A stretch of DNA of 63,960 nucleotides, filler included, from Dimargaris cristalligena (GCA_003614675.1; 2 parts of 2 records of this genome joined end to end with filler, not necessarily neighbours in it), one strand, 5' to 3'. Shown: positions 11,917-60,046, counted from the first letter of the whole stretch. Notes: generated by a model from the sequence alone, not told the origin. Program-made: numbers and translations.

Positions 11917-13304
11917 TTAGGGAAACAGGTTCCCGTACGATTGCGAGCCGTCGGACAGGCCGGGATCCGAATCGAAGGAGTTGGCGGGAGCATTGCCGCT
12001 TATTTGTCCCGCCGAACCCGGAGTAATCCCTAGATGGATTGATTCGAAATTGTCGTACAAATTAGGGGATAAATGAGCGTTGGCCATAGGGTGGTGGTGA
12101 TGGTGTTGATGCTGGCCTGGGTTCGCGGCCGCGGCCGCCATAGCGGCAGCAAATCCTACTGAATGACTCGACCAGTCGAAATTAAACCCCGTGGTCGGAA
12201 CAAAAGTAAGTGGGGCCGTCGTCGCAACGGGTACCCCATTTCCGCCCACGACCACATTATGGTTGGTAGTAGTCGCCGTAAACGCATGGCTGGGTTGGGA
12301 TGTGAGAAGGTTCATGGAGGTAGGGGTGGATGCGGAAGACAGGCCCGGCCAAAGATGGAGGTTCGCCGGGCTCAGGGAGTGGGCGGGTAGTCCAGCCAAG
12401 GCAGCCTGGATCGTTGCGGCGGGGTGCGCGGAATTGGGCACAAACAAGTGGGCTGCTGGGGTGGTGGTAGTGGTGGTGGTGGTGATAGCTCCTCCCCCGG
12501 TGGATATTAGACCCGTGGCCGGGGTGGTGGGCAGGGAAGGGGTAGTAGGGGTTGGTACGGGGGACAGATTGATGGGCGAGCCCTGGAGTGACCGCAGGAA
12601 AGAAGGGCCTCCGTTACTAGCAGTGCTACCATTTATCGTGTGAGGGGTTATTGGAACCAGTAGCGGGAAAGAGTGCGAGTGACTGTGGGCATGGGTATGT
12701 GAATGGCCCTGGGGGAGGGTGGTGGTACTGCGGGAGTGTCCGCCACTCTGCTGGGCAGCGAGACGCTGTTGCATTTCCTCAATACAATTATCCCTTTCGA
12801 GGAGCTGTTGTTTAAGGGCTCTGACCTGTTCCTCGAGGGCCTTGGTCTTGCATTCTTTACGCTGCCGGTAATTGCGCTGGGCGGTGCGGTTCTTCTCCTT
12901 GCGGATGTTAATGGCATTGGGGTGGGCCTTGCGCCCGGGCTTCTTGCGGAATTTGGCCTCGGGGTGGTCAGTCCCGCTGGTATCAGGTTCCGTCGAGAAG
13001 GCACGCTTGGAACCGGTGGACTCAACTGCTAGTGAAAATAAGCCAGAGAGAGACCAAGGGCAGCGAAGGAGGGAGGTATACAAAAATACACACCAAGGAT
13101 AGTATGCCAAGCACTGTGCGTTAGATAAGGTACAAACAGGATAGCGGGCAAGGGTACTGCCGTTAACGGACTAATGAACGGCGGCTGCCCTGGTAGGTTT
13201 ATGAAGGCTATCTTGGCAATCATTCCGGAATAAGATAGATGAAGCAGCAACTTACAGTCCGGACTTGGGGAAGGATGCGATAGGCGGTCCTGGTGCGAAG
13301 TCAT
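11917..13304 (-). CDS. AP-1/Yap-like bZIP transcription factor, 2 exons, ~386 aa
   Basis: Basic region RKKPGRK...RKEKNRTAQRNYRQRK followed by a leucine zipper. Exon 1 13304-13256 (MTSHQDRL..., GTAAGT donor), exon 2 from 13028. The 3' end could be further spliced. Confidence 0.85.
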
Positions 13305-21761: not shown

Positions 21762-22925
21762 TTACAATGACAAACGCCATTCCAGGGTGTGACCAGCCCA
21801 GAAGGGCACAACCTCACCTCCCCGGGGGCGTGACTGCTGCTTCCCACTGCTTACTTCCGCCGATTCTGCTGCATAGCTCGGTTTACCCGAATAGGGATAG
21901 GCAGTGGGGACAACGTATGTCGCATTATTCACTGAATCAGTGGGGTCTTGAATGGCGGGTCTGCGGGCGAGCTGAATGGACGGGTAATCGAGGGGTAAGT
22001 CTATGGGATGGGGTGGGAGCCCATAAAACTGCCGACCAAAGTCACAGGCGAAACCCCGCAGGCGGTCGAGGGCCCCGAAGGAATCTAGAATCGTGGCCAG
22101 ATAGGGCATGACCAGCGGGGTCGTGAAGACACCCGCGCAGGTTTGGGCATTTTCCTTGGCGTGGCGGGGGTGGGGGGCCGAATCAGAGCCTAAGAAAAAG
22201 CGGGGGTGGCCTTCCCGGATGACCTCCCGCAGGGCGGCCCGGTCGTGGGGGAACTTGGCCACGGGTTTGCAGAAATGGTGGTGGAAACCGGCCCAGTCGT
22301 CGACCACGAGCTCGAGGTGGTGGACGGTGATGGTACATCCCACGGTGGGGCCCAATGATTTGACCATGTCCACGGCCTCGCGGGTGGTGGCATGCTCCAA
22401 CACGATCCATAGGTCGGGAAACGCTTGGTGAATGGCCTGGAGGTGGGTGAGGAACTTGGCTTCCGCATTCAGGACGCAAATATCGTGGTCGCGATCGCTC
22501 GGCACTTCACCGTGCAGGTTCAGAACCATGCCGACTTCCTGCATCGCCGCAAACACCGGGTAATAGGTGGTGTAACTCTCGATACCGGCCTCGCTGTTCG
22601 TGGTAACACCCCGGGGATATGACTTGACGCCGACAATACCCGCTTGCGCGGCGAGGCGGATTTCGTCAGGGGTGAGCTCGGGACACAAGTACAGGGACAT
22701 GAGGAAGGTCACTTCGGGGGCTAGGGTCTCGAGTTTTTCTTGGTAGGCAAGGGCCTGCTGGACGGAGGTGATGGGGGGCTGGAGATTGGGCATCACGAAA
22801 ACGGTGCTGATGCCACCTTGTACGATTTTAGGGGTGACCATTTCCATGAGGTCACCTTGGCGTAAATGGACGTGCATATCGCTGCCGTAGGGCAGGCGGA
22901 GGGTGATGGGAGTCGTTGAGGCCAT
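21762..22925 (-). CDS. URA4: Dihydroorotase (homodimeric, URA4 type), intronless
   Basis: Motifs DMHVHLRQG, VMPNL.PP, GVKSYPRGVTTNS, LHGE, VLEHATT, CKPVAK, FFLGSDSAPH. First ATG at 22925. Confidence 0.96.
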   Translation of the reverse strand: MASTTPITLRLPYGSDMHVHLRQGDLMEMVTPKIVQGGISTVFVMPNLQPPITSVQQALAYQEKLETLAPEVTFLMSLYLCPELTPDEIRLAAQAGIVGVKSYPRGVTTNSEAGIESYTTYYPVFAAMQEVGMVLNLHGEVPSDRDHDICVLNAEAKFLTHLQAIHQAFPDLWIVLEHATTREAVDMVKSLGPTVGCTITVHHLELVVDDWAGFHHHFCKPVAKFPHDRAALREVIREGHPRFFLGSDSAPHPRHAKENAQTCAGVFTTPLVMPYLATILDSFGALDRLRGFACDFGRQFYGLPPHPIDLPLDYPSIQLARRPAIQDPTDSVNNATYVVPTAYPYSGKPSYAAESAEVSSGKQQSRPRGGEVVPFWAGHTLEWRLSL

Positions 22926-23625
22926 GTGGGAATATGGAATGAGGGTGGTTGGAGGCACGTACACGCTTAATTGGTCTAAGAATGGTTAAGGCTGTCGCTT
23001 TACGGTATGAGGGGAATGGGCAAAGTAAAACAATAATGAAATGGGGAGAGAGAGGTCCTGTCTGTAATGAAAAGGAGTTGGAGCCGGCTTATCATTATCA
23101 GTGGGCTCTATACAGCGTTGCTATTCTATGTCGTATATGCGCATATACGGTTAACGGGAGAAGGAAGGGTATTTGCCCCAACAACGAGTCACAACTGGCT
23201 GAACAAAAAGCTTTCAACAAGGCGGGACACACCTAATTGGAGATGGCGGTGGTTGGCTGGGTTCTTCAGTATCGAGGCAAGGATTGGTGTGCATATATCT
23301 GCCGGGCTGTTTTCCCATACTGATACACTCATTGGTTAGTAGTGGCTTGGGAACGGCTAAACTTGTGTAGCAGCATACCCATTCGGGGTTCCCATTCCCC
23401 TATTACCAAATGAGTATGAAACCTCCCTCCCTATTTTAAGCAGTTCCAACCATACCCATTTCCCCACTTATTCGCCTCACCATAACTCCGCCCAAGACTT
23501 AGGGCTTTCCTTATTATCGTATCCAGCCGTTTCCCTATTTGCATTTCACTAATTCCTGTAATTATCCGAGACTCCCTCTCGGCCCATCTCCTTCGACCCA
23601 ACCCAGCCCTCCTACTTCAGTCGCC

Positions 23626-26777: not shown

Positions 26778-29706
26778 TTATTTCCACAAACGGAATTCCC
26801 AGGAGTACTTGTGTTCGACGCAGTGAATACGGGTTACCAGGCCCTGGTCCACGACGGTGGCTGGGGCCGGCTGGTCTAAGTGGTCATGCATCGAAATAAG
26901 TGAGTGGGAAATAGGGGTAGGTTGTCCCCCCGCTGGTTCTTTAGGGGCCATGGTCTGATTGAGCCAAGCCAGCGGAGAGTGGGGGGTAAAGTCCTTGGGT
27001 AAAAGGGCGGTTAGTTGACCCCTTTGGGCTTGGACCAATAACCCCAGCAAATTAGTCCATTGGGAAGGCAGTATCCATCCTCGAATTTCCAGGCTATACC
27101 GGGATTCCGATTTCGGGGGATGCTGTTGCTGGCGGTTATTATTATCATTATTATTATTACTATTGATGATTTTCCTATAGCTGTTGGCGATGTTGCTCAC
27201 CGGAGGTGCCCCGTTCATGGACCGTTGCGAGGGAAGATGCTGTCCGTTTTGAATGGTTTGAATGGCATGTACGTTGGCCCAGGCCATTTCGGCGTGGTGG
27301 AAGGGAAATGGTGCGACCAACTGGGCGCTTTTCCGAACCCGGCGTTCCGTGCGGGGATCCTCCCAGGCCAGTAGAAAAGTTAGCAGGGCTTGGCAATGCT
27401 TCAAGCCATGAACATAGACACTGGATTGTGGAGTATGATCGGTTTTCTTGATGGCCAGGGCCTGGAGGGCCGCGTCCATACCACCGGTGGCACGTATGGC
27501 TTCCGCTTGGTCGACGGCAACGGAGGTGAACACCACCCCGGCTTCGGTCAGGCGTCGGCGTAAACCCACGGTGGAATGGGAAATCCGCGCATCATAATAA
27601 GGGGTAACAGTACTACTACTACCGGTTTTGGTGAATAGAATATTGAATTCGTCGTGGAGGAAATAGAAATAGCCCCCTAGGGGGCGATGGATTAGGGTGG
27701 AAAAAGCGGATCGCAGGGCAGCGCCCCATCGTTCTTTTTGGGCTTGTAGCCGACTAACTTCTGCTTGTTCGTCCGCATTCGGGGACTTCATTTGGCTTAG
27801 AACTTTGGTGAGTAATTTAGCGTACAGTTCGGTGTGAGGAGGGGACTGGTAAGACCAGTGGTATAGACACGATAGCACCTATATATTAGTTGGTTAGGAG
27901 AAGTAGAAAACCAAGTAGGTGGGTTAATACTTTTTTTTTAAAGAAAAATCATAATAGTAAGATCGATTTAGATTTAGAGGAGTCGATAGTTCGTTACTTT
28001 CTGTCAAGGGACGGCCGTTAGAATGGTAGGCTTAGTATTAACTAATGTGTGACACTTACTTGACTTGTTAGGCTAAGTTTCAAGCTGGTCGATAGTTGGG
28101 GCTGGGTGAAATTCAGAATGGCTAAGGTGTAGTCCTCACTGCTTTTGTTCTGGGTATTGCCCGTGGCGGACCGGAGCCAATCAAACGAATTGCCCGACAT
28201 AAATAGGGCCCCTGTACGTAGTGTCCAATCGATCGGCGGAGTGCCCGATTGTTGCTGGGGTATGGGTGCTACTACTTCAGCTGGCCAAACCGGTTTCTTA
28301 AAGTCGGCCTTCGCCTGGATAGCCGTACGCTCAACCAGGCGCTGGATTTGATCGGCGGATAGATCGGATCGAGTTTCGCGCTGTAGTTCGAAGATGCGGG
28401 TTAACCGAGGCCGCGTTTCCTTGGGTTTATCACCGCTCGATGATACCAGTTGGCTGGCAGCCCGCATAAGACGGTGATCAGTTCGTGAAGTTGGGGTTTG
28501 GGTGGAATTAGCCGAACAGACGTATAGGCTAGGATCCGTGGTAGCTTCATCGACGATTGATGACTGGGCCGGAGCAACATAGTCGTCTAGGTCCGGATCG
28601 GCTCGGTGGGCCGGTACAATGAAAAGGGATTGGCTTCGCAGTAATAAATTCCGATCATCCGAGTCCGGGTGTGCGTAGTTGTCTTCATCGTCATCCGACG
28701 ATAGGGCGGTCGGACTGCCGGTTAGCTGGTCGGCCGATATGAATGAATGGCCATGGTTATAATGGCCGTCTTGCTTGTCATCCTCGCTTTTAAAGTGCCG
28801 CATGTCCAAATGTTCGTCTTCCTCGAAGTTCGACAAATGGGACAGGGTTAGGCGACTTAAAGACTGGGTGCCGAGATCGGGCGTAGTGTTGGCGGATAGA
28901 ATAGGTGGCTCCGACCGACTTGCCGTGGAGCCCGGAAAAACATTGACACTGGATAAGGCAACGGGAAACGAAAAGGCCCGACCTGAGAGGAGCTGGGGCA
29001 ACGTAGGCGCGGATACAGGCGGATGGTCGTCATCCACAACACATCGATACGCTGAGCCCTTTTCGGCTGAACCATCCCGGAGACCTAGTACGCGATTGAC
29101 GGTATGGAAGGGATTGGCTTCAGCTGGACCATGCACAACGGCACTGCAAAAGACGTTAACGGGAGGAGGGGGTCGACGAGCGGCGTGAAGCCGTTGCTGG
29201 CCATTGGGTAACGGGTAGGCACTGGCCGTCCGCTGTAAATGGGCCCCTTTGGATTTGGGCGGCCGGTTAGAGGATGGTGGTGGAAGTGGTTTGCCCCCCT
29301 TGGGTAATGGGGCGGGATAGGGCGTGAATCGCGTGACGGGGCCAGTAGGGGTGGTACATATACCTCCGGCGGGCGGGTGTTTCGCGGTCTGTGGGGAAGT
29401 AGTGATACTCGATTGTCGGGATAATTGCCTCCGCTATAGGGATACGCGAGTAAGGGACCGAAACGTCCGGGGTCGAATGGGGTTGGTGTATGATGGTATT
29501 CGTTTAGTAAAAGACAAACCCAAGCGGTTAGTGCCTGGGCGTATGGCTTGCAAGTTAGAAAGATGGTCGCGAGGGTGGGCCATTGAAGAAGTAGCACAAT
29601 TGCCAGCGATTGGGCCGGTAAACATGATGGACATATACTGGATGGTCGGACTTACTTTGAGCTCCGCGGGGGTTAGGAATCGTTTCGGTTTCGAGGTAGA
29701 GTCCAT
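26778..29706 (-). CDS. DONSON: DONSON (downstream neighbor of SON) ortholog, 3 exons, ~841 aa
   Basis: Exons 29706-29656, 29433-28060, 27878-26778, phase 0. Family blocks in order: PIDWTLRT..F.S..SFDW, LYHWSY, W...LRS....YFYF....F.ILF, ARISHSTVGLRRRL..AGVVF, DHTPQS..V.G, LVAPFPF..A, YSLEIRGWILP. Confidence 0.85.
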
Positions 29707-43527: not shown

Positions 43528-45588
43528 TTAGGTGGGCAGCTTATCCAGGATAGGGAACGGATGTGCCTCAGTGTTGAAAACGTACTCCGTCAAAGGCACG
43601 ACTGAGTCTGGACTGAAAAGCAAATACAAGTACTTGAGGGTTTCCGCCAAAAAGAACGTTTCCATTTTGTCCTCGCGGGGTGGGGGTACGACCGTTACGT
43701 CATGGAGAGAGGTGTAGCCCCCCGACTCCAACCGGGCGAATTTTTCAAAGGCCATAAAAATCTTCCAGCCCATTTCACGGTATTCCACTTTTTTGGTGAT
43801 ACGCCACAAGATAAAGAGGGATTCGATCGTTTCGGGTCGAAGCAGGTTAAAGCCACGGTCAGGTGGGATATCAAAATCACTATGGAGGGCTTCCGAACGC
43901 GGAGGGGAGTGGGACCCGTCACCGGCCATGGGAGCCGACCATTGGGTGCGGGGTAGGCCAATGTATTTTTGGGCCGCGGAAGTACGGGTGAGATAGGGGC
44001 TTCCTTCCCGTTGGTAGCCGCGGAAACGGACCATTTCGGGGGCCAATCCCGTCGCCGTGAAATCGTAGAGTTGCCAGCAACCGTAAGCCAATTTTTCGGC
44101 CAAATCGAGATCCTCCTGGTCCCGGACCTGCATGGTATGAGTGATGGGGGTCCCCTGAGCGGTCCGTCCGGCTTGAATCTCGGCTAGGGAGTAGCCGCGC
44201 GTGGCCCCTAGCGCCAAAAGCCCGGGCAGAAAACAGGACAGGTGCTCAGCCTTGGGGAAGAACTGGGGCTTATAGGGGGACTTGAGGTGGTGGACCTTGA
44301 CATACTGGTCCCAAGTCGAGCGGCCGAGGTAGGGCAGCCATAGGTCCCCCACTAGGGCGATATTAGTGGACACGGTCTGCCGAACCAAATGGCGTTTGAC
44401 GCCCTCCACCGAAGCGTCGTACATGTCGCGGTACACTTTTTGGTCGGCATGGCCCCGGGTTTGGATCCACTGTTTCAGCAAGTACTCGTAGTAGCTATCC
44501 CCGTGGGCCCCCATGGTGATATCCCCCGAGTACGGGGAATTGTTAAAGGGGTCCATAAAAACGGGCCACAGCCCGTCGAGCGGGGTGATTTGCTGGATCG
44601 ATCGCATGACCGCCTGGGCTTTGCGATGGTACTTGGGGTCCTTGGTGAGATGGCTGAGGTACGCAAACTCGAGCTGGAGGGTACCTACTTCGGCTAATGA
44701 AATGAGGGACGTTTTCCAAGATTCCATGTTCTGGTTTTCGGCAATCCGTTCGGGTGATCCTTCGGGTGATAGGGCCAGATACACAAATTTGGATGGGTAG
44801 TCGTTGTTCAAGGTCCAGGCCTTCATCAGACGGTCGGCCAAATCCACGGCTAGGGTCAAATAGATGGGATCCTGTTTACTGAGGTGATGGGCGGACAACA
44901 AGCCACCCAGAGTGCGGATATTCGTTTCAAAGACCGACACCGCATCCCCCTCGATATTAAAGTCAAGGGAATGGGCCACCCAGTCGCGGGCCTCCTTGTA
45001 TTCGGCGTCGAGGTTCATAATCAACATCGTATCAAGGCTGTCGACGATGGTGTAGCCCAGGCCGCGCGAGGATAAATTAAATCCCCGGTGGGCCATAGGG
45101 GCGTACTCGTCACTGCCGAACGCGTCCTGGCGGTAACCCTTCCAAGCGTGACGGAAGGCATCCACCACTTGGTTCCGTCGGGCAGTCCATTGTTCTTCCT
45201 GATTGACGGACAAAGGTGCGGGCGGGGGCTGGGGCTTAGCAGGGGTCGGAGTGCGGAATGTAGTTGGGCGTCGGTAGCCGGCCCATATATTGTCAAACGA
45301 CGTCAATAGGGCGAGGAACACCATGAATATAAAAAGGTACAGGAGAGGGAGCTGCCAGCGGCTCAAGGCAGAGGATCGGGATCGGTCCCTGTCCGGGTCG
45401 TCACCATCCCCCTCCTGAAAAATCAATGGTGAAAGCGAGGGGTTGCCAGCCGAAGGCTGGTTGTAGTCAGACTGGGGGTTCGTCTCGAGATGGTCGATGA
45501 CGGTGGTCTGCGGAGAATTCTGATTGGCGAGACTAGACTGCCGTTGACGATTATGGTAGGCGCCACCACCACGCTGAGCAGCGGCCAT
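43528..45588 (-). CDS. MNS1: Class I alpha-1,2-mannosidase (GH47), type II membrane, intronless, 686 aa
   Basis: VDSLDTM, SVFETNIRTLGGLLSA, LAEVGTLQLEF, GAHGDSYYEYLLKQ, LRPETIESL, METFFLAETLKYLYLLF, VFNTEAHP. N-terminal TM helix. Confidence 0.95.
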   Translation of the reverse strand: MAAAQRGGGAYHNRQRQSSLANQNSPQTTVIDHLETNPQSDYNQPSAGNPSLSPLIFQEGDGDDPDRDRSRSSALSRWQLPLLYLFIFMVFLALLTSFDNIWAGYRRPTTFRTPTPAKPQPPPAPLSVNQEEQWTARRNQVVDAFRHAWKGYRQDAFGSDEYAPMAHRGFNLSSRGLGYTIVDSLDTMLIMNLDAEYKEARDWVAHSLDFNIEGDAVSVFETNIRTLGGLLSAHHLSKQDPIYLTLAVDLADRLMKAWTLNNDYPSKFVYLALSPEGSPERIAENQNMESWKTSLISLAEVGTLQLEFAYLSHLTKDPKYHRKAQAVMRSIQQITPLDGLWPVFMDPFNNSPYSGDITMGAHGDSYYEYLLKQWIQTRGHADQKVYRDMYDASVEGVKRHLVRQTVSTNIALVGDLWLPYLGRSTWDQYVKVHHLKSPYKPQFFPKAEHLSCFLPGLLALGATRGYSLAEIQAGRTAQGTPITHTMQVRDQEDLDLAEKLAYGCWQLYDFTATGLAPEMVRFRGYQREGSPYLTRTSAAQKYIGLPRTQWSAPMAGDGSHSPPRSEALHSDFDIPPDRGFNLLRPETIESLFILWRITKKVEYREMGWKIFMAFEKFARLESGGYTSLHDVTVVPPPREDKMETFFLAETLKYLYLLFSPDSVVPLTEYVFNTEAHPFPILDKLPT

Positions 45589-47500
45589 GATGTTTACTAA
45601 TCAGAAGTGGTTGAGCTAGTAGGGGGCTTGGGGGTAATTATGCAATACAAGGAAGAAACTGTGCAAGGGGAGTATAAAGGCGGTCGGTATCGAAAGTGGC
45701 GCAGGGCAGTTTCTTGGTTCAAAGGGGGCGTATTAGGCCCGGCCAATATATAATAAAGTACAAATAGAAGGATGAGAGCCAAGACAACAAAGGACGACTG
45801 GGGTTACAGTCTTCACTATTGGGTTGAGTTCGAACTTACTGGGCGATACGGAAGCCGATGACTTCATAAACTACCGTACCCACTGGTATTCAATAAGATT
45901 GGGGGACCAGGAGGAGGGGGCTACACTATGGCAGTGATAGATGATAGAGCACACAGAAGTCCACGCTGGGAACTAAAATCATCATATAACACCTCTATCC
46001 CTCATAAAAGTTGCTTTGGTACGAGTGTGAGAGTTGATTGCTCCGAAGTATTTACCAGGTTTTGTTCGGTGGATTTAACACGTACCAACTGTGAGTTCGT
46101 TTAGGCATTATCGATAACATGGGTGCCGCGTTCCTGCTCAGTCCGCTGGTCCGTATTCCGCCAGTGACTGAATTGCATCCGTGACTGACTTCTGCAGATG
46201 ATTGATTCTTGGTGATAACTGTATTACGAGTAGGTCCAGCTGCAATCCCCATTTCTGGGCTGCGCTGGTGCAGGTCCTGACTAGAATTTATGCCTAACCA
46301 CCGGGTCCTCGGGATTGGGGGCATTGTAAATGTTCTTCTATACGAGCCAGGTGTTGCACGACATGAAGGGGACATTAGATCCTTGCAATTCATTTATCGA
46401 AATAGCCATTGAGAAAAGGAAGAATATAAAAATGTATTGTTCGGCAATTATAGCTAGAAGTCCCTTTGTTTATCAAAAATATCAGTTAATAAGCAGTGGT
46501 CTGGCCGTGTGCATGGCAATGATAAAGAAATTAATCAGAATTACCGATTGCATGCTATGAAATATGCCGCGGAGTTAGCTACAAATGATACCCATCGCCT
46601 AGATCAACCGGAAAACTTATAGGACCTCGTGGAGGACCATATTTCAAAGCAGGACCAAGGCCACTGGGCTTAAACACCTAAAAGTGCCTCTACTGGCTTG
46701 AGAAGGATATGGGGAAGATTCAACCAGGCTATATAACGAAAAACTCGTTAGATGAGGCGAATACTACTGGTTAAGCAAGAATATTCCGCCTATCTTCTCG
46801 TACACGTATTATCCATATCCCTTATACAACTGGACCGGATTTTACCCATATCCATAAATGGTGACAATATGGTGACGGCATAATAACCCAGGGTCGTAAC
46901 TTGAAGTCCATAATTAGCCTTGTGGTAACGGGGTCGAACCTGGGCAATACTGTATTTTTATCGGCACTTTGCCTTTGTTTATTATGGTGTTCTTCCTTTA
47001 ACTATTCGACCTATCTCTTATAACTTGACCACTGGCACTGATTTAATTTGATTTTACACGCTAGGGTCCTATTTAAACCGCCATGTCACTACTTCCTTGT
47101 CGGTTTTCCCCCCACCAATAGTAAAATTAATCATTCTAAAACCCACCGAGGATACTAAATTCACGGATAGGTTTTTAATAGAAAGATAAAGGCCCTGTAG
47201 GACCATTCATGGCAATGCGATAGTGTGGGTATTTTATTATGATATTGGTATGTGGTAGGTTTTATTTCCCAGCGTGGGTCCTTTGGATTGGTGGTATATC
47301 CCTCTCACATTATCAGCGAAGCACCCCGCACACTTTATCTTGAGCAGTTGACTTCGTCTTTGTAATGTCCCGCCTTCATTCTCGTTGAACCTTTTTTCCA
47401 ACCAATATTTACTTTCCCTCGTTCTCGCCAACCTGTCTTTAGTGTAATAGGTTTCCAAAATATTTCCTAGAGTTTTCCGTGTTCCCACTCTCCCAACAAC

Positions 47501-51565: not shown

Positions 51566-53031
51566 GAACATTAGACCTCCGATGGTTGGGAAATAAATGA
51601 CCATTTTTTTCATCAACGTATGTAACTTGATTGGGAGGTGGCCGGCTCTCTTTTCTGGTTGCTGTGAAGCCGACGCTGGTTATGCCCTGACTAAGTCCAT
51701 TAGTATGGGGTTGCTTTATTTCAATGACGAAGTTATATAGGTTGTCATTGGAACGGTCAAAGTAGTAGGTACTGAATTCAGGTACAACCTGTGGACGTAG
51801 GTAATGTTTAGGCCATGGAGATGTCACTGGTGCCGGTCGGAGTGTATTTCGTGACTGTGACAAAAACTGGACGCCTTGATCATATTAAATGATAGACGTC
51901 TGCTACGTAGGATACCCGGATTGGTAGCCTAATGGTAGGTGCTGGCTAGTCACTACCTAGTTAAGGTTAGCAATACACCATTTAATATATTGGTGGAGTT
52001 CAATATGCGTTATAACTACCTAACTGCAAAATCACCAAATGAGAAACTTCAAGTTCAGCTAATATCTTGGTCGAAATGGTTCGCGGATGAAAATGACAAT
52101 GATTTTATCAACTTATAATGTGAAGTATTGGGAGATTGCCCATCCAATGGGATAAAGCCACGTTACAGCAGACCTCACCCCCGAAAACCCAAGGAAACCA
52201 GTTCTAGAAAAATTATCTAATGGGTCTGATGATCTGCGTCTGTAAAGAGGTTAAAAAATTAACACGAGGGCACAGTATCCTCATCGTAAAATTGTGGTCT
52301 TGGTCAGACCAAAACCAGGGGCGGCATCACACCTGCTGCGGTCAAATGCAATAGAATAAAGGTTCCTGATTACAAACTCCACTCTTCTAAGATACAGAAG
52401 CGCGCGTGGGTTGAAGGTCCGGGGCGTATTCGATAAAGGACTGGGCCATTCACTTACTGAGGTTTGGTCAATTAGTTTCTGAGGCGTCACGAAGGAATTC
52501 TGCATAACGAAAATGGAGATATGCTGCACCAACGAGGCGGGAAATGAAACCAAATCCACGGGCCCCTATTGAATGGGATCCCGACCAATCAAAAGTGGCC
52601 ACGAGTACGACGGTTGATTTCTGTAGGAATATACCGTTATTGTAGGGTGGCATTGTATATTCGCTAATTGAGTGTATCAAGTTTTCCCCTTGGGAAATCT
52701 TCGACTCCTGAAAAAATAATCCTCCGATCGACAGCCAGCCTGCCACAACCAGGGGTAGCAAAACGACCTCAAAAAATATCACGTCGGAGCATCCAACTAT
52801 CCAGAGAAAAAAACCCCGATGTCCCGGAATAGGTGACCCTTCCAGACAACATAGTCCTATAAAACCCCACTATAATCACTCTCCTTCAGAAAGGAATGTG
52901 CTTCATCTGCATTATATACCCACCCTTGCATACCATTCATCCGCATCCCTAATATATTGAATCATAGCCGAACCTGTCATTTTCCCATCTACCAAAGCGT
53001 ATACCACGTTTCCTACTGTGTCACCTTTTCC

Positions 53032-54789
53032 ATGTTACACACGAGCCTTAACGACGTGCGACCCAGCGACAGCGAGAATAACACCGTTCTTGGCGAAGCA
53101 CTTGACTATTCGGCCGTCGACTTATGCCCGAAAGATAAACCGCTACCAGTTACCGACAGTGATGCCGACCCGACTCCATTAATCGCCAATTCCGATATTT
53201 CCGATGAAAAAGCGCTGGACGACCCACTAAGGGGTCCCCTTGAAGATGGCACCCAAGTCGAGTCCGGGGACCCGCCTCCCATAAGTGCGGCCAAACTCAC
53301 AGTGATTATGATTGGGCTCTGTCTTGGTTCCTTCCTGGCCTTCATCGACATGACCATTGTGGCCACGGCCTTGCCCGAAATCGGTTCCCAGCTGGGTGCA
53401 TTTAACGAAATCACCTGGGTGGCTTCATCGTATATGTTAACCACAACTGCGTTACAGCCCCTGTATGGCAAGTTTTCAGATATTTTCGGCCGGGTGCCCG
53501 CTATTCTTTTTGCCCTCGTTGTATTTCTGGTGGGCTGTGCCATTTGTGGGGCGGCCCAAAATATTATGACCCTTATTATCGCCCGCGGTTTAGCCGGTAT
53601 CGGGGGTGCTGGTTTAATATCTCTTAGTTTGATTGTCGTGTCGGACATTGTACCTCTGAACAAGCGCGCTTTATTTCTGGGGGCCTTTGGCGGCGTATTC
53701 GCCATCTCAAGTGTCATTGGCCCTCTAATCGGCGGGGCTTTCACCGATTATGTATCGTGGCGCTGGGTCTTCTATATCAACTTGCCCATCGGTGCGGTCA
53801 CTCTCCTGGTAATCATTTTCTTCCTGCGTATTCCCCAGCCCAAAGGGTCCATATTGATCAAACTGAGAAAGGTCGACTATTTGGGAACCATTCTTTTAGT
53901 CGCTGGCCTCGTCTTCCTTCTCTTGGCCATCATTTGGGGCGGCAAGGACTATCCCTGGAATGACAAGCGCATCATTTCGTTTTTCTGCGTCGGATTTGCC
54001 CTCATCATCTTATTTATCCTGGCCGAGATCTATGTGGCGACCGAACCCATCGTCCCCATGTCCCTGTTCCGCTACCGCAACATCAGCATTAGCTACATTA
54101 ATGGCGCGTTCCTCGGATTAGCCGCGAACGGCATCATCTTTTATATGCCCATTTACTTTAGTGTCGCCCTGGGTGATTCAGCGACGCAGGCTGGCATCAA
54201 ACTCCTGCCCTTTATGCTCGGTATGGTCGCTGGGATCACCGCGGGAGGTCTTTACATCAACAAAACCGGCCGTTGCCGTGAGATTGTCTGGGTCGGGAGT
54301 ATCATTGCTACAGTTGGCGCAGGTCTTTTAACGTCTTTGAATGTTAATACGACCATTGGCCATGTCGTTGGGTATCTTCTCATCATCGGGGTTGGCTTGG
54401 GGCTGAACCACCAGACCATGTTGGTAATCGCCCAGTCGACTGGCAAAGAATCCGAAGTAGCCATTATCACTGCGTGTCTCAACTTCTTCAACGTTATAGG
54501 GGGTACCCTAGGCGTGGCAATTTTTTCGGCTATCCTGAATAACGTCCTCAATGACCGACTCGCTCACATTCCCGGCCTCGATTTGGGGAAACTCGCCCAA
54601 GACCCCGCCGCTATCAATGATATGGGTGTGTCCGAGGACGCTCGTCACCAATTCACCGAAGCCTACGTGAAGGCCATCAGCTCCCTGTTTATACCCCTGA
54701 TCCCCATGATGGGTATTAAATTCATTCTCGCCCTCGGATACCAACATATCCCCCTGCGAACTGACCTTAAGGATGATGAGGAGGATTAA
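53032..54789 (+). CDS. MFS drug:H+ antiporter (DHA2, 14-TMS), copy 1, 585 aa
   Basis: DMTIVATALP, QPLYGKFSDIFGR, RGLAGIGG, WRWVFYINLPIG. ATG 53032 aligns with paralog starts. Confidence 0.95.
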   Translation: MLHTSLNDVRPSDSENNTVLGEALDYSAVDLCPKDKPLPVTDSDADPTPLIANSDISDEKALDDPLRGPLEDGTQVESGDPPPISAAKLTVIMIGLCLGSFLAFIDMTIVATALPEIGSQLGAFNEITWVASSYMLTTTALQPLYGKFSDIFGRVPAILFALVVFLVGCAICGAAQNIMTLIIARGLAGIGGAGLISLSLIVVSDIVPLNKRALFLGAFGGVFAISSVIGPLIGGAFTDYVSWRWVFYINLPIGAVTLLVIIFFLRIPQPKGSILIKLRKVDYLGTILLVAGLVFLLLAIIWGGKDYPWNDKRIISFFCVGFALIILFILAEIYVATEPIVPMSLFRYRNISISYINGAFLGLAANGIIFYMPIYFSVALGDSATQAGIKLLPFMLGMVAGITAGGLYINKTGRCREIVWVGSIIATVGAGLLTSLNVNTTIGHVVGYLLIIGVGLGLNHQTMLVIAQSTGKESEVAIITACLNFFNVIGGTLGVAIFSAILNNVLNDRLAHIPGLDLGKLAQDPAAINDMGVSEDARHQFTEAYVKAISSLFIPLIPMMGIKFILALGYQHIPLRTDLKDDEED

Positions 54790-56667
54790 ACCTCTACCAT
54801 CGAATCCTATATTTAATAGCAGATTTACCCCTGCATTTCCTTTAGTCTTTGGGCTATTGGATTCCCCTACCCGCCCTTCTTGTTAGGCCATATTCAAGAT
54901 GGTGTTAAATAATGGACCAGCCCTGTTGTTTTTTTCTAAAACAAATTATGCAATCCGGCCCTTTTCCCCATTAAATCCATGACTGGGGTCCCCAAAGTTA
55001 TGGTTTTTCCAATTGAAATATTACCCAATGCGTATTTTACCTCTCATATGTAGCATGTTTATTCAACGGTAACGCTATGTATACAAACCTACATTGAACC
55101 TTGGGAATGCCAAGAATTACGGTTTAATATTATGAGGGGCTATTCTTTCACCAGTTGAGTTGTAACAATTCACAGTCTATTTATTATCAGGTGCACCAGG
55201 GTATTTCAGTTAAAACCGTCCCTGTTTTATTGACAGAGGGAACATGAGAAATATTAGAGGTCTGATGGTTGGCAAGTCGGAATATGCGAAGGTCGAAAGG
55301 TGGACCTGCCAGCCAAACGTGGAGGCTTGGTGGGGAGGGGAATACTCATATGCAGGACTACTGGGTATGGCAAGTAAATTACTCGCCCCTTGTGCAGCGA
55401 ATGTATTAAATATTAGATTTGTACTAATTAATAGGGACCTACTGTCGAGTATCTCAATTACTTGCAATGCAACAGTTAAGCTGATGAATTCTACCGAAAA
55501 ATGAACGACGGGTCGAGCGGCTGTGTTGGCTGCCTGGGCAATTTCCTACGCCTTGCCTTCTCCCGCTCACCCTTGCATTGTAATTAATGATACAGTGGCC
55601 CCGTAAATGGGAGGTGGCCGGACATTTCTTGATGGGCTGCAGAGGCGGAGTGAAAGAACAGGATTCACTCCGCACAATATCCTCCTTTTACCTTTTTCGC
55701 TAATTTAGAAACTGACCAAGTGGCCTGCCTCCGCAGCCATATTGACACTACTTACACACTCCGTAGAAGATGATGGTCGACGACCGATTGGCAGATTCGC
55801 GCCAGAGTTTCACTGCAAATCACCTGGGTCTATATTAGTAAGCAACTGGTATGCCCAGTTTAGAAGAAAAGAAGGTTAGGCTTCTAATGGCTATAGTGTA
55901 TTAGAGGGTATTTATTTTGTTGTTTATCAATAAATCCACACCGGATCCACCAATAAACGGCCTGGCATGACTTCCAGTTCTCCAAATCAGATTGATTCAG
56001 TATTAAGTCTTTGTCACGGGTATCAGGTTTAATATCGGAGATCAATGACCGCGAACTCCTTAGCTCCGCAGTCAAACAAAAACCTTGAAAGAGAAGATCC
56101 ACACTACCGGCCGAGTTCCCGGGTGTTTACCTGTTTGGCTGCACCCCCTGCCCATTGGCTGTCGGCCACGGGTCTGAAAGTGGGTCGCGACGACAGTCAA
56201 TTGATCTGTACGGTACCACTGTTCACAGGTAGCCCAAAGGGCTATAATATTCACACTCACCACTATCCTAGGACGCACCCAGACGGAATCTACCGGATGG
56301 CCGGCAAACACGCACTGGGAAAAATATAGACACCCTCCCACCCCGTTAAGGAATGTGGTGGCCGGCAGTGGCCTGATTAGTCAGCCGAATGTGCTGGTGA
56401 TTAAGTGTGCGGACTTTTGACGGCTACCATCTTCAACGGATTTGGCAGAAAAGGAGGAGCCGTTTGAGCGATTTACATCTTGGTTCAACACATAAATACT
56501 GCCCCTAACCGCCCTCTCAATATAAATATGACTTACTAGATCACTATTTAGACCCTACCTAAAAGCCAGTCGTTCTTCCTTATTTATTTATTTGTAGTAC
56601 CCTAGACCTATTTATTACACCGTGTAAGAATTGTACTGGTCCCATTTTTATCAGCGTTAATCTCACC

Positions 56668-58408
56668 ATGACATACACCGGTCTGGCCAATGCCCGGACC
56701 AGCAACAGCGAGAACAATACCGTTCTCGGGGAAAGCCCGGAGCATGCGGCCTTCAACCTGAATCCGCTAACCCGGTCGCCCACTATCACCAGTACTGACC
56801 CCACCCCCCTATTTAAGGCGGCGGACCCACAGGGTGAAAAGCTCCCGCCGCTGGAGCTTGAGGGCAGTTCGCCCCTCGACGCCGAGGAACCTCCCCCGAT
56901 TAGTATGAAGAAACTAATCGTCATTATGATTGGTCTGTGTCTCGGTACTTTTCTGGCCTTTATCGACCTGACCATTGTGGCCACGGCCTTGCCCGAGATT
57001 GGTACGCAGCTCAATGCCTTTGACGAAATTACCTGGGTGGCTTCATCATATATGTTGACGGCCACTGCCCTGCAGCCCCTGTACGGCAAATTTTCGGATA
57101 TTTTCGGACGGGTGCCCGTTATCCTGTTCGCTCTGGTCGTCTTCATGGTCGGCTGTGCCATCTGCGGGGCGGCCCAGAATATCATGACCCTTATTATCGC
57201 CCGCGGTTTGGCCGGTATCGGCGGCGCCGGTTTAATATCTCTCAGCATGATTATCGTATCTGATATTGTGCCCCTTAATAAGCGCGCGTTGTTCCTGGGT
57301 ATCTTCGGGGGTATATTCGCTATTGCTAGTATCGCCGGGCCCCTACTCGGTGGTGCTTTTACCGACTACGTGTCGTGGCGCTGGGTCTTTTACATCAATC
57401 TGCCCATTGGCGCAGTCACACTTCTAGTGGTTATTTTCTTCCTGCGCATTCCCCATCCCAAAGGCTCTATGCTGGCCAAGTTACGCAAAATTGACTACCT
57501 GGGCACTTTCCTTTTGGTGGCCGGTATTGTTTTCATCCTTTTAGCTATTTTGTGGGGCGGCAAAGACTACCCTTGGGACGATAAGCGCATCATTGCCTTT
57601 TTCTGCGTTGGGTTCATTCTCATCATTTTTTTTGTTTTAGCGGAGATTTACGTTGTACCTGAACCCATCATCCCCATGACCTTGTTCCGTAGCCGGAATG
57701 TCTGCATTAGCTATGTCAACACCCTGCTCCTTGGAATAGCCGTATTGGGTGTCATCTTTTATTTACCTATTTATTTCAGTGTGGTTCGCGGGGATTCCGC
57801 CACCCAGGCCGGTATCAAACTCCTGCCCTTCATGCTCGGGATGGTTGCTGGGATTGCCGTCTCGGGGGTTTATATCAACAAAACCGGTCGGTGTCGGGAG
57901 ATGGTCTGGGTCGGGAGTGTAATCGCCACCGTTGGTGCTGGTCTCATGACTACCCTGAGCGTCGACTTATCCATTGGCCATATTATCGGATATCTGCTTA
58001 TTTTAGGGATAGGCCTAGGGTTCAGTTTCCAAACCATGCTGATGATTGGCCAGTCGGCCGCTGAGGAATCGGAAGTTGCCGTGGTTACGGCCTGCTACAA
58101 TTTCTTCAACGTCATTAGGGGGTACCCTAGGGGTGGCCATTTTCGCCGCCATTATGAACAACGTTCTAAATACCCGCCTGGCCCTCATTCCTGGTCTTGA
58201 TTTAGCCACGTTGGCTGCCTCGCCGTCCGCCATCAACACTATGGACGTGACCGACGATGCCCGTCACCAGTTTATGGAGGCCTACGTGAAGGCCATCAGC
58301 ACCTCATTCATCCCTCTTATTCCGATGATGGGTGTAACGTTTCTCCTCTCACTAGGTTACAAACACGTCCCACTAAGAAAAGACTTGACCGGGGGTGCCC
58401 ACGGCTAA
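56668..58408 (+). pseudogene. MFS DHA2 transporter copy 2 with a 1-nt frameshift near 58115-58117
   Basis: ORFs 56668-58200 and 58046-58408 together match full-length copies 1 and 3. Sequence aacgtcATTAgggggtacc versus copy 1 aacgttATAgggggtacc. Confidence 0.8.
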
Positions 58409-60046
58409 TTCATACCCTACCCATTATCGTATTTACATATTAGAACACCAATAAAATTAATAGACGAAGTGAGGTGCTTGCGGGTTCGAAATGAGAGCCA
58501 AAACTTATGGAATGGAGGGAAAAGATGCCCTAAATAAGTGAATTTGGATGTAATTACATGGTGTATAAAAAATATGGCGGTCGACTCGTTGTAGGAAACG
58601 TACAAGTATTTGGGATAGGGGTGTACAGCCTACTTTTCCCCAATATACAATGCCTGAATTTCATTTTCCTTGAGTATCAATAGGTATTTAGTCATTCCAC
58701 GTCGGCTCGCTACACAGCGGTCATCTTTTTTGTCCTGCATGGCCCATTCGTGTGTAGAAAGGTGCGCCAGTTTTGATGATTATAGTACAAGGAAATACCC
58801 GCTGCTGAATCGCCATTAATATGTATGTGGTTTTTTCAAGAACACTACGTTTGTTGCTCAGGGAGAAAGGACCCGAGTGAGGGAAATAGGGTAGAGTGTA
58901 AAGTTTCGTAAGCTAGGATCCAGCTAACTCTCCGAGTAGTTTGAACCGGTTAATGGGCGTGACTATCGGCTTTATATATGTTATTCGCTATATATTGTGA
59001 GGTTAGAATAAGTGTATACCTGCATAGGAAGGCTTGCTCAACTGTATACAGGGGGATGCTTTGAAGTTCAAGAAAAGCATGTTGTTAAAGACTCGACCCC
59101 TCTCACAATAATGGTTGGTTTTAGTAATCCCACCGCATAAATGACACTTACATATTTGTACTAGCCACGCCGAATCATATATCATCAGATAAATACTCAA
59201 TTGAATTGTATATTTGACGATATAGTAGTGCTGCGCGTTTTATTGTCAAGGGATATCGACATTTTTATTAATGTTTTTACCACCTGAATCACCAGGCCTA
59301 TCTCAAATAACCCCTATTTTAAATCATATAATTTTTAGCCACTGTCTACCAAGCGCTGATGCTTCCAAATGTAATTGTGCGCAACTCTCACACCAGCACG
59401 ACCAGACCCTTCGAATATGACGAATGAAATTATGCCACCTGTCAAAAGATTGTCCACCTTGCTCCGGTTGATTTCCCTCAGCGCTTTGGTCCTACTAATG
59501 ATCACAGCCTACCATTTATAGATACTAGCATATCGAATTGAGCGTATAAAATGTGGTGCACGGTATACATCCTATCTCCCATTGGCTGTATACCCAACCA
59601 ATTAAAAATGACCACGGGTCCAGAAGCAGATATTCCCCAATTTGGCTTGGGTGGCGGGCCTGTTTTGTAAAAATAAATCTTAGTTATAGTACTATTCTGC
59701 CGGCGCGTGCTGTACACTGGTCGAAATAAATCAGGTAATTCACTGCGGTAAAGTGAGGGAAATATTATATCCCTCAAGCCGGGGGGTAGCCCAACAGTCG
59801 GGTCTATTGTGAATTGGAGATGGAGAGAGTCTATCAGTAGAGTCGGCGGACGTATAGTGAGGGGATATAGCCCTAGAGGCCCATTCGCCAACCTGGCCTA
59901 CAAATATAGCTTATCGCCCTGTCCCATGAAAATTAGGGTCCCCTGCATCCACTCCCCTGGTATATAACGGCCATTGTTATATGTGATATTTACCTGCTTA
60001 ATTTATTTTCCCTCCTTTTCTATAACTGTAAGTTCTGGCCAGCGCC

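Follow-up and report, generated by a model that had tools for sequence, protein, structure and literature searches.

The locus and its gene model

On the minus strand of the analysed stretch of Dimargaris cristalligena DNA (63,960 nucleotides, filler included; GCA_003614675.1; hereafter the window) we found, at 29706..26778, three open reading frame pieces that were joined by their coordinates across two GTAAGT...YAG introns. The gene model has the following parts, together with two segments that the deposited model excises:

29656..29706, minus strand: exon 1, 17 aa, with the ATG at 29706 and the first portion of the KRFLTPAELK motif
29434..29655, minus strand: intron 1, 222 nt, GTAAGT...TATAG
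28060..29433, minus strand: exon 2, 458 aa, with the remaining N-terminal motif, the disordered linker and its short motifs, and the opening part of the globular domain
29389..29433, minus strand: segment excised in the deposited model, 15 codons (RRQLSRQSSITTSPQ), part of the N-terminal basic motif
27879..28059, minus strand: intron 2, 181 nt, GTAAGT...ATATAG
26778..27878, minus strand: exon 3, 366 aa and a TAA stop, with the bulk of the DONSON globular domain and the C-terminus ...FRLWK
27846..27878, minus strand: segment excised in the deposited model, 11 codons (VLSCLYHWSYQ), a conserved L-Y-H-W-x-Y block and predicted beta strand

An earlier note on this DNA, made from the sequence alone, had proposed a spliced protein of ~841 residues with two introns here, and the joined frame bore this out with 841 codons and 0 stops. 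The NCBI protein BJ085DRAFT_40169 of D. cristalligena is a 100% match to it and is deposited as a 'hypothetical protein' of 815 residues. The start of exon 1 matches those of Dimargaritales homologues (MDKDTKAKRFLTPAELK and MDGAPGAKRFLTPAQLK). The acceptor of intron 1 is the first AG past an ACTAAC branch-like site (A at 29528), and that of intron 2 is likewise the first AG, 15 nt past a CCTAAC branch-like site. The pattern L-[KR]-[KRQ]-x-Q, which occurs within the first 70 residues of 16 of 42 homologues, is present in the 841-residue model and absent from the 815-residue one. The columns of VLSCLYHWSYQ are occupied in all homologues compared (36/36), 28 of which have the Trp; the block pairs with Xenopus SLVHWIHP and is a strand (E6-11) in the AF2 model of exon 3. 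The homologues and the branch-site positions thus support both predicted acceptors of the 841-residue model over the annotated ones, and, on this comparison, the deposited model is without two conserved segments and the 841-residue model agrees better with the homologues. A candidate third intron, in frame and 72 nt long, lies at 27200..27129 on the minus strand.

No MCB, E2F or SCB cell-cycle promoter boxes were found in the 794 nt preceding the ATG, an absence that is weak evidence either way. Comparison of 14 long open reading frames elsewhere in the window to Pfam identified a bZIP protein, an amidohydrolase, a GH47 protein and three MFS transporters, and the other 8 frames received no family; none of these 14 was a Sld2/RECQL4, Dpb11/TOPBP1 or Treslin-MTBP.

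Family membership, predicted fold and distribution

A phmmer search with exon 3 against PDB sequences returned a single match, to Xenopus DONSON (8q6o_R; E-value 1.2e-7). The same chain was matched with an E-value of 1.8e-90, over DONSON residues 149-579, by a 37-sequence profile (A1), confirming the DONSON core blocks that the earlier note had read in the protein; C. elegans DNSN-1 (8ouw_F) followed at 2.3e-20, and there was no third match at E<=0.01. An hhalign comparison of a fungal-dominated profile to 24 arthropod DONSONs gave a probability of 100% and an E-value of 2.1e-57 over 351 columns. The precomputed Pfam assignment PF27662.1 is found on the D. cristalligena protein and its Tieghemiomyces relative, and also on 120 of 120 animal DONSON or humpty dumpty proteins among the matches listed; we equated PF27662 with the DONSON / humpty dumpty / DNSN-1 family through these carriers. 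A separate Pfam scan of exon 2, exon 3 and the deposited protein returned 0 families. The D. cristalligena protein, in which the DONSON sequence blocks are far above chance, is long and has diverged: outside the species, even the closest relative shares just 34% identity. The first of the globular domain is found in exon 2:

28060..28239, minus strand: start of the DONSON globular domain (PPIDWTLRT...), a P.DW.LKT block aligned from Xenopus residue 149

Two AF2 models were built, one of the deposited 815-residue protein and one of exon 3 alone. The former has pLDDT values of 70-97 in the core blocks, with strands and helices from residue 396, and values below 50 across most of residues 19-390; the latter has a mean pLDDT of 77.7 and a pTM of 0.75. 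The best three PDB matches by Foldseek were all DONSON/DNSN-1 chains, both for the deposited-protein model (4.1e-16, 4.7e-13 and 2.2e-12, the second of these values being that of DNSN-1) and for the exon-3 model (1.9e-12, 7.6e-8 and 9.6e-8). VIA-align of the predicted model gave a Z of 18.8 to 8q6o_L (rmsd 3.8 over 247 residues) and of 14.9 to 8ouw_F, the runner-up outside DONSON being RPP40 with a Z of 6.9. The ESM Atlas offered no usable feature match, its model having a pLDDT of 0.29 and structure neighbours all with TM <0.3. Both the sequence and the predicted fold show the DONSON globular domain to be complete; it resembles that of Xenopus laevis DONSON (8q6o/8q6p; Cvetkovic 2023, Lim 2023) up to the C-terminus. 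C. elegans DNSN-1 (8ouw; Xia 2023) has the same domain and fold and is more remote in sequence than Xenopus DONSON; its partners have been demonstrated by cryo-EM and genetics, whereas those of the fungal protein are putative. We conclude that the gene at 29706..26778 is a true fungal DONSON orthologue.

DONSON orthologues were found in 27 named non-Dikarya fungi, including Tieghemiomyces, Dispira, Dimargaris xerosporica, Ramicandelaber, Basidiobolus, Calcarisporiella, Bifiguratus and those of 19 chytrid records, e.g., Spizellomyces punctatus (P0020). In every case the source database annotates the protein as hypothetical or uncharacterized. The gene has a wide distribution across chytrids, Zoopagomycota and some Mucoromycota. 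A quick maximum-likelihood tree placed the D. cristalligena protein inside a Dimargaritales clade (SH-aLRT 100) as sister to Tieghemiomyces (97), with animals and Pigoraptor as a separate group (93) and the deep nodes without resolution. That this fungus retains an animal-type factor, as had been proposed, holds by profile, fold and quick tree.

The gene could also be an artefact, i.e., animal contamination, a copy gained by horizontal transfer or a pseudogene in decay. D. cristalligena is a mycoparasite and hard to grow clean, and the source of one chytrid homologue record marks it as UNVERIFIED_CONTAM; however, the 841-codon frame is intact, its introns and branch sites are canonical for fungi, the protein clusters with three other Dimargaritales species at the SH-aLRT of 100 given above, a fungal-type W.DPR..RR block stands in place of the animal one, and the window neighbours are ordinary eukaryotic genes (GH47, MFS transporters, bZIP). 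We regard an artefact as so improbable as to be negligible; the quick tree and the fungal-type sequence blocks speak against animal contamination and horizontal transfer.

The earlier note had allowed that its novelty would drop if DONSON function in early-diverging fungi were already documented. In the available portions of Xia 2023 and Evrin 2023, DONSON is said to be missing from 'many' or 'most' fungi and not from all of them; the existence of fungal DONSONs is already acknowledged in print, and the retention of ancestral genes by non-Dikarya fungi after their loss in Dikarya is a known pattern (PMC10406608). The gene is one of many such ancestral genes kept by non-Dikarya fungi and lost in yeasts. 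Since many early-branching fungi keep DONSON, the find is sound but unsurprising, and in practice it adds a modest amount: the gene model is corrected and a hitherto unnamed protein receives a name. Literature searches on DONSON in fungi and in chytrids brought up, among the papers listed, no genetics or biochemistry on a requirement for a fungal DONSON in GINS recruitment or CMG assembly; the single match for chytrids was irrelevant.

Short motifs of the N-terminal arm

The D. cristalligena protein is longer than Xenopus DONSON (841 residues vs 579) and has a linker of ~400 residues. Two short motifs were located in this arm, in addition to the basic motif at the N-terminus:

29107..29115, minus strand: NPF motif, AAT CCC TTC in frame, residues 124-126 of the 841-residue model, followed by a short predicted helix
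28963..28980, minus strand: RAFSFP, an instance of the fungal-type motif R-x-x-S-x-P in the linker

The N-terminus reads ...KRFLTPAELK|RRQLSR across the junction of exons 1 and 2, and this basic motif is common to fungal homologues. Its resemblance to the metazoan N-terminus, claimed earlier, amounts to a short motif: when the consensus lines are compared by eye, [F/W]-x-x-P-x-E-[L/V] occurs both here and in the arthropod consensus S..WK.P.EVM.LHRLK, whereas a literal F..P.[EPD] was found in just 8 of 120 animal N-termini among the matches listed, the animal consensus having W where the fungus has F. The profile alignments (profile A1 to PDB, and hhalign to arthropod DONSONs) stop short of this motif. 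In the deposited-protein model, residues 13-17 come out as a weak helix with a pLDDT of ~59. The available portions of the animal work describe a Sld5-binding helix at the extreme N-terminus, at Xenopus residues 6-22 including Y8 and at worm residues 4-19; in C. elegans this helix lies near Sld5 and a second helix on the MCM-3 AAA+ domain, and this layout, as far as the available text describes it, resembles the one predicted for the fungal protein. A PGY-like Tyr equivalent to Xenopus Y8 is not evident in the D. cristalligena protein, and no literature pairing 'PGY' with DONSON was found in searchable papers.

The NPF motif, correctly placed in the earlier note, is conserved and no chance tripeptide. 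Upstream of the core, homologues have 42 NPFs where 1.34 are expected (26 of 43 homologues), and an NPF falls in the first 200 residues of 116 of 120 animal DONSONs among the matches listed. There is one copy in D. cristalligena and there are two in many homologues, and in the profile A1 match the column of the fungal NPF falls on Xenopus RRNPFASL (N67). The motif had been assigned to TOPBP1 binding, which the literature contradicts: the available portions of the animal papers give the partner of NPF as POLE2, a non-catalytic subunit of Pol epsilon (from Xenopus N67A and the human peptide 71-88, and also from cryo-EM density for aa 76-83), and place TOPBP1 BRCT3 on the DONSON globular domain, at Xenopus N430 (PMC10801813). 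By analogy, the fungal NPF may serve to dock Dpb2/POLE2, the B subunit of Pol epsilon.

The second motif, R-x-x-S-x-P, was found in 18 of 35 usable homologues (23 instances observed vs 6.3 expected) and in 1 of 119 animal rows (5.4 expected), and the majority columns of the profile A1 consensus read R..S.P. By the general consensus of such sites it may be a kinase or 14-3-3 site; no literature linking DONSON to 14-3-3 was found among the matches listed. Other non-Dikarya orthologues have the same order of elements, namely the N-terminal basic motif, NPF (often two), R-x-x-S-x-P, an acidic Ser-rich stretch, and the core with W.(D/E)PR..RR; D. cristalligena differs in its one NPF and in a low-complexity insertion of its own.

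Interface positions of the core and the proposed role

Within exon 3 we compared the fungal protein to residues with known contacts in animals, as described in the available portions of PMC7615117, PMC10801813, PMC7616792, PMC12808100 and the preprint 10.64898/2026.05.15.725364. The features of this comparison are:

27444..27521, minus strand: loop with two predicted helices (DQAEAIRAT / DAALQALAIK) at the position of the animal D3 loop
27378..27380, minus strand: Thr at the position of Xenopus Asn430, the TOPBP1 BRCT3 contact, by pairwise alignment
27339..27365, minus strand: WEDPRTERR, fungal-type W-x-(D/E)-P-R-x-(E/D)-R-R
27138..27242, minus strand: Asn/Gln-rich low-complexity insertion, a gap in every other aligned row and predicted to be disordered

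The two loop helices fall at H120-130 and H136-145 of the exon-3 model. In Xenopus, D374, E377 and W381 belong to an acidic, Trp-bearing helix of the D3 loop that binds the MCM3 ATPase domain (PMC7616792, in its available portion); the fungal loop is about half as long, weakly acidic and without Trp, the counterpart of W381 being missing. The block WEDPRTERR stands where animals have N-C-K-S...A-G-x-P-P, which bears Xenopus Ser437, an MCM3 N-terminal contact according to the same available text. The position of Xenopus W234 (dimer) is His here, and that of M463 (dimer pocket) is Met, as in Xenopus. The Asn/Gln-rich insertion, absent from Xenopus DONSON as is the R-x-x-S-x-P motif, has a pLDDT below 50 (exon-3 residues 213-247). 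At the column of N430, all 43 anchored animal rows have Asn vs 2 of 26 fungal-type rows, a count that leaves out 78 of 147 rows for their wrong anchor. The absence of this Asn concerns the mode of TOPBP1/Dpb11 coupling and leaves family membership unaffected. With the BRCT3-contact Asn not conserved and an extra R-x-x-S-x-P present, the link to TOPBP1/Dpb11 probably differs from that of animals.

DONSON has been known as a GINS-delivery factor in animal helicase assembly only since 2023, and replication initiation has been reconstituted in yeast, an organism without DONSON. The gene is very probably a vertically inherited DONSON / humpty dumpty / DNSN-1 orthologue with a predicted role in CMG assembly. 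From the animal work we infer that the fungal protein would act in CMG helicase assembly at replication origins, where its N-terminal motif would hold GINS via Sld5 and its NPF would loosely tether Pol epsilon via the B subunit Dpb2/POLE2, while the globular domain and the loop helix would bind Mcm3 and position GINS on loaded Mcm2-7; the protein would probably act as a homodimer that serves two helicases. Fungal DONSONs keep the motifs of the putative GINS and Pol epsilon sides and do not keep the contact Asn of the TOPBP1 side.

The budding yeast route through Sld2, Dpb11 and Sld3-Sld7 serves the same step, bringing GINS and Pol epsilon to Cdc45-Mcm2-7, and is likened here by function only; it has no DONSON, according to the available portions of Xia 2023, Evrin 2023 and PMC13421386. 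The last of these, a 2026 paper, asks in its available portion which yeast factor replaced DONSON, and proposes that Dpb11 has assumed its GINS-recruiting role; DONSON-bearing fungi are a natural setting for studying this replacement. The same text describes DONSON as present in most eukaryotes and ordinarily combined with Sld2/RECQL4 in animals. The earlier note had inferred a hybrid or transitional system from a possible coexistence of DONSON with yeast-type Sld2, which does not follow: because this combination is the ordinary state of animals, its occurrence in a fungus would be ancestral and not hybrid, and the D. cristalligena gene is no evidence of a new hybrid pathway.

A more specific version of this proposal would have DONSON deliver GINS with its Dpb11/TOPBP1 coupling rewired (e.g., through phospho-R-x-x-S-x-P) and yeast-type Sld2 alongside, as a stage towards the DONSON-free yeast pathway. 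The near-absence of the N430 Asn from fungal-type rows (Thr here), the prevalence of R-x-x-S-x-P in fungal-type homologues relative to animals, and the exchange of the Xenopus S437 region for the W.DPR..RR block are consistent with such an intermediate, and the proposed Dpb11 takeover (PMC13421386, in its available portion) makes it conceivable. However, coexistence of DONSON with Sld2/RECQL4 is already the animal state and hence is not by itself transitional, the motif is a putative kinase or 14-3-3 site by general consensus, and the Asn count is without the wrongly anchored rows; we consider an intermediate system of this kind unlikely. We are somewhat more doubtful still that non-Dikarya DONSONs form a distinct functional subtype, in which the GINS and Pol epsilon tethers are kept, the TOPBP1-BRCT3 contact is lost, and coupling goes via a phosphorylatable R-x-x-S-x-P to Dpb11 BRCTs, a checkpoint kinase or 14-3-3. 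Such a subtype, if true, would represent an extant halfway stage linking the DONSON route of animals to the yeast route that does without DONSON.

The altered equivalents of W234, N430, W381 and S437, the length and divergence of the protein, and its lineage-specific low-complexity insertion might instead point to a DONSON fold no longer used in origin firing and kept for replisome or fork stability or for an unrelated role. We think this quite improbable, as the short motifs behind the GINS and Pol epsilon contacts of animals are kept across Dimargaritales and chytrids, which is hard to explain without replisome partners, and the globular domain is conserved end to end. A C-terminal ...WK is common to D. 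cristalligena, Xenopus and a spider.

Gene model and splice acceptors

The DONSON gene of Dimargaris cristalligena (Kickxellomycota, order Dimargaritales, by taxonomy lookup) was read as the following pieces.

29706..29656, minus strand: exon 1, open reading piece
29655..29434, minus strand: intron 1, GTAAGT donor
29433..28060, minus strand: exon 2, open reading piece
29389..29433, minus strand: 15 residues RRQLSRQSSITTSPQ without counterpart in the deposited model (later intron 1 acceptor)
28059..27879, minus strand: intron 2, GTAAGT donor
27878..26778, minus strand: exon 3, open reading piece
27846..27878, minus strand: 11 residues VLSCLYHWSYQ without counterpart in the deposited model (later intron 2 acceptor)
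27138..27242, minus strand: Asn/Gln-rich insertion, absent from all aligned homologues
27129..27200, minus strand: candidate third intron in this insertion, GTGAGC...CCAG, 72 nt, phase 0, in frame

Joined by coordinates, the three exons gave 841 codons and 0 stops, and the 841-residue spliced reading made in an earlier note from the sequence proved accurate to the base. The translation carried the N-terminus KRFLTPAELK|RRQLSR and an in-frame NPF at 29115..29107 that the note had described, and its observations as a whole were confirmed. Exon 3 had 100% identity to the NCBI entry "hypothetical protein BJ085DRAFT_40169" (815 residues, Dimargaris cristalligena), a model that takes a later acceptor at both introns. 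The evidence favours the acceptors of the 841-residue model, which we prefer because the VLSCLYHWSYQ columns were filled in 36/36 aligned homologues (Trp in 28/36), this segment aligned with SLVHWIHP of Xenopus DONSON and formed a core beta strand containing the family L-Y-H-W-x-Y block in the AF2 model of exon 3, the 15 residues at intron 1 brought back an L-[KR]-[KRQ]-x-Q pattern found near the start of 16 of 42 homologues, and both acceptors were the first AG past a consensus-like branch site (ACTAAC, 94 nt away in intron 1; CCTAAC, 15 nt away in intron 2). Removing the 72-nt candidate intron would cost 24 residues, and a clear branch site was absent from it.

Identity and descent

Exon 3 alone had a single match among PDB sequences, Xenopus DONSON (E 1.2e-7). 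An exhaustive phmmer search over 1.84 billion representatives returned 43 hits at E<=1e-3, and a profile of 37 of these matched Xenopus DONSON (E 1.8e-90, residue 149 to the last residue) and C. elegans DNSN-1 (E 2.3e-20) in the PDB, with no other match at E<=0.01. Profile-profile comparison with 24 arthropod DONSONs gave a probability of 100% (E 2.1e-57, 351 columns). Precomputed Pfam PF27662.1 was found on the D. cristalligena protein and on 120/120 animal DONSON or humpty dumpty proteins among the matches listed; exons 2 and 3 and the deposited protein had no match in a local Pfam copy. For each of two AF2 models (deposited protein and exon 3), the top three Foldseek matches were DONSON/DNSN-1 chains, and VIA-align placed the predicted model on Xenopus DONSON (8q6o_L) at Z 18.8 (rmsd 3.8, 247 residues) and on DNSN-1 (8ouw_F) at Z 14.9. 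The claim of a fungal DONSON ortholog is thus supported by PDB match, profiles, Pfam family and predicted fold, and we identify the protein as DONSON on sequence and modelled structure. The nearest solved fold past DONSON was human RPP40 of RNase P (Foldseek E 5.6e-3, VIA Z 6.9, AF2 models), and the DONSON core may be remotely related to it in fold.

Source records were looked up for 32 of the 43 phmmer hits. Fungi accounted for 27 (four Dimargaritales, Ramicandelaber, Basidiobolus, Calcarisporiella, Bifiguratus, and 19 chytrid records including Spizellomyces punctatus), all labelled hypothetical or uncharacterized; the others were the holozoan Pigoraptor (1), a spider "downstream neighbor of Son-like" protein (1) and three without organism name. 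To our knowledge, none of these fungal genera is ascomycete or basidiomycete. A quick ML tree put the D. cristalligena protein within a Dimargaritales clade (SH-aLRT 100) with Tieghemiomyces as sister (97), and animals plus Pigoraptor in a separate group (93), deep nodes being open. Contamination or transfer from animals is therefore disfavoured, and the sequences fit vertical descent.

Passages in Xia 2023 and Evrin 2023 describe DONSON as absent from "many fungi" and "most fungal species", respectively, and both date it to early eukaryotic evolution. In general, hundreds of ancestral families that Dikarya lost are retained by non-Dikarya fungi (Merenyi 2023, PMC10406608, whose main text does not mention DONSON). 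Among the matches listed, we found no main text concerned with DONSON in chytrids or in any other early-branching fungus. The D. cristalligena gene is a new, unnamed family member with a corrected gene model. According to passages in PMC13421386, most eukaryotes have DONSON, and animals combine it with SLD-2 or RECQL4. On that basis, a fungus carrying both DONSON and an Sld2-type protein would represent the ancestral condition and not the hybrid or transitional system that had been suggested.

Motifs compared with animal DONSON

Passages in five papers (Xia 2023, Lim 2023, Cvetkovic 2023, Keskitalo 2025 and a 2026 preprint, 10.64898/2026.05.15.725364) describe an animal N-terminal helix that binds Sld5 (Xenopus residues 6-22 with Y8, worm residues 4-19) and whose deletion abolishes function. 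The D. cristalligena start, KRFLTPAELKRRQ, had a near letter-for-letter match in Dispira and D. xerosporica, and chytrid orthologues had a related N-terminal KKRPLDLAALRQRQ. The D. cristalligena start and the arthropod consensus S..WK.P.EVM.LHRLK both fit [F/W]-x-x-P-x-E-[L/V], a short likeness that lies beyond the reach of both profile alignments (37-hit profile against the PDB, hhalign against arthropod DONSONs).

The NPF falls in the alignment column of Xenopus N67. It was present in 26/43 homologues (42 observed against 1.34 expected) and in 116/120 animal DONSONs among the matches listed; D. cristalligena has one copy, whereas many fungal orthologues (P0005-P0010, P0013, P0017, P0019, the S. 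punctatus orthologue P0020 and others) have two, 14-25 residues apart. The earlier note took NPF as a TOPBP1-binding motif; passages in the same five papers give POLE2 as its animal partner. Of the earlier interpretation, fungal DONSON identity was supported; the NPF-TOPBP1 pairing and hybrid pathway were not.

Two further segments were typical of the fungal proteins.

28963..28980, minus strand: R-x-x-S-x-P instance RAFSFP (within RAFSFPVAL), common to fungal orthologues
27339..27365, minus strand: fungal-type W-x-(D/E)-P-R-x-(E/D)-R-R segment, from segment and homologue alignments

R-x-x-S-x-P lies between NPF and an acidic Ser-rich stretch in fungal orthologues (RSYSCPAGL and similar in chytrids), and was present in 18/35 usable homologues (23 observed, 6.3 expected) against 1/119 animal rows (5.4 expected). 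Its pattern resembles a basophilic-kinase or 14-3-3 mode-1 site, and it may be phospho-regulated; no literature among the matches listed linked DONSON with 14-3-3.

In passages of the five papers, an acidic helix with W381 in the animal D3 loop binds the MCM3 ATPase domain; the D. cristalligena loop at that position is shorter, lacks Trp and is predicted to form two helices. Of the Xenopus dimer residues, M463 is Met and W234 is His. Xenopus N430, which contacts TOPBP1 BRCT3 according to the same passages, is Thr in D. cristalligena; in a segment alignment this column held Asn in 43/43 correctly anchored animal rows against 2/26 fungal-type rows, where Asp was commonest (78/147 rows were wrongly anchored and left out). 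The fungal W-x-(D/E)-P-R-x-(E/D)-R-R stands close by, in place of the animal N-C-K-S...A-G-x-P-P, the stretch with Xenopus Ser437, which contacts Mcm3.

Proposed action and neighbouring genes

The analysis establishes domain, predicted fold, motifs and descent for this protein. By homology, it would carry GINS, held by Sld5 at its N-terminal motif, to Cdc45-Mcm2-7, together with Pol epsilon tied loosely to NPF by Dpb2. It would also dock on Mcm3, and it would probably act as a dimer. Coupling to Dpb11/TOPBP1 probably differs from that in animals, whose contact Asn it does not keep. That fungal DONSONs form a rewired subtype bridging animal and yeast initiation routes seems improbable to us. 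The D. cristalligena protein offers two concrete leads on lineage-specific differences.

Elsewhere in the window, one minus-strand ORF matched glycosyl hydrolase family 47 (mannosidase; 43528..45600, E 5.9e-151), a second was amidohydrolase-like (21762..22985) and a third matched bZIP weakly, under Pfam's cut-off (11917..13170); none is replication-related. Three tandem plus-strand ORFs with MFS_1/TRI12-type transporter domains (52876..54789, E 7.7e-50; 56563..58200, E 1.6e-53; 60032..61756, E 2.7e-50) look like a local gene triplication.
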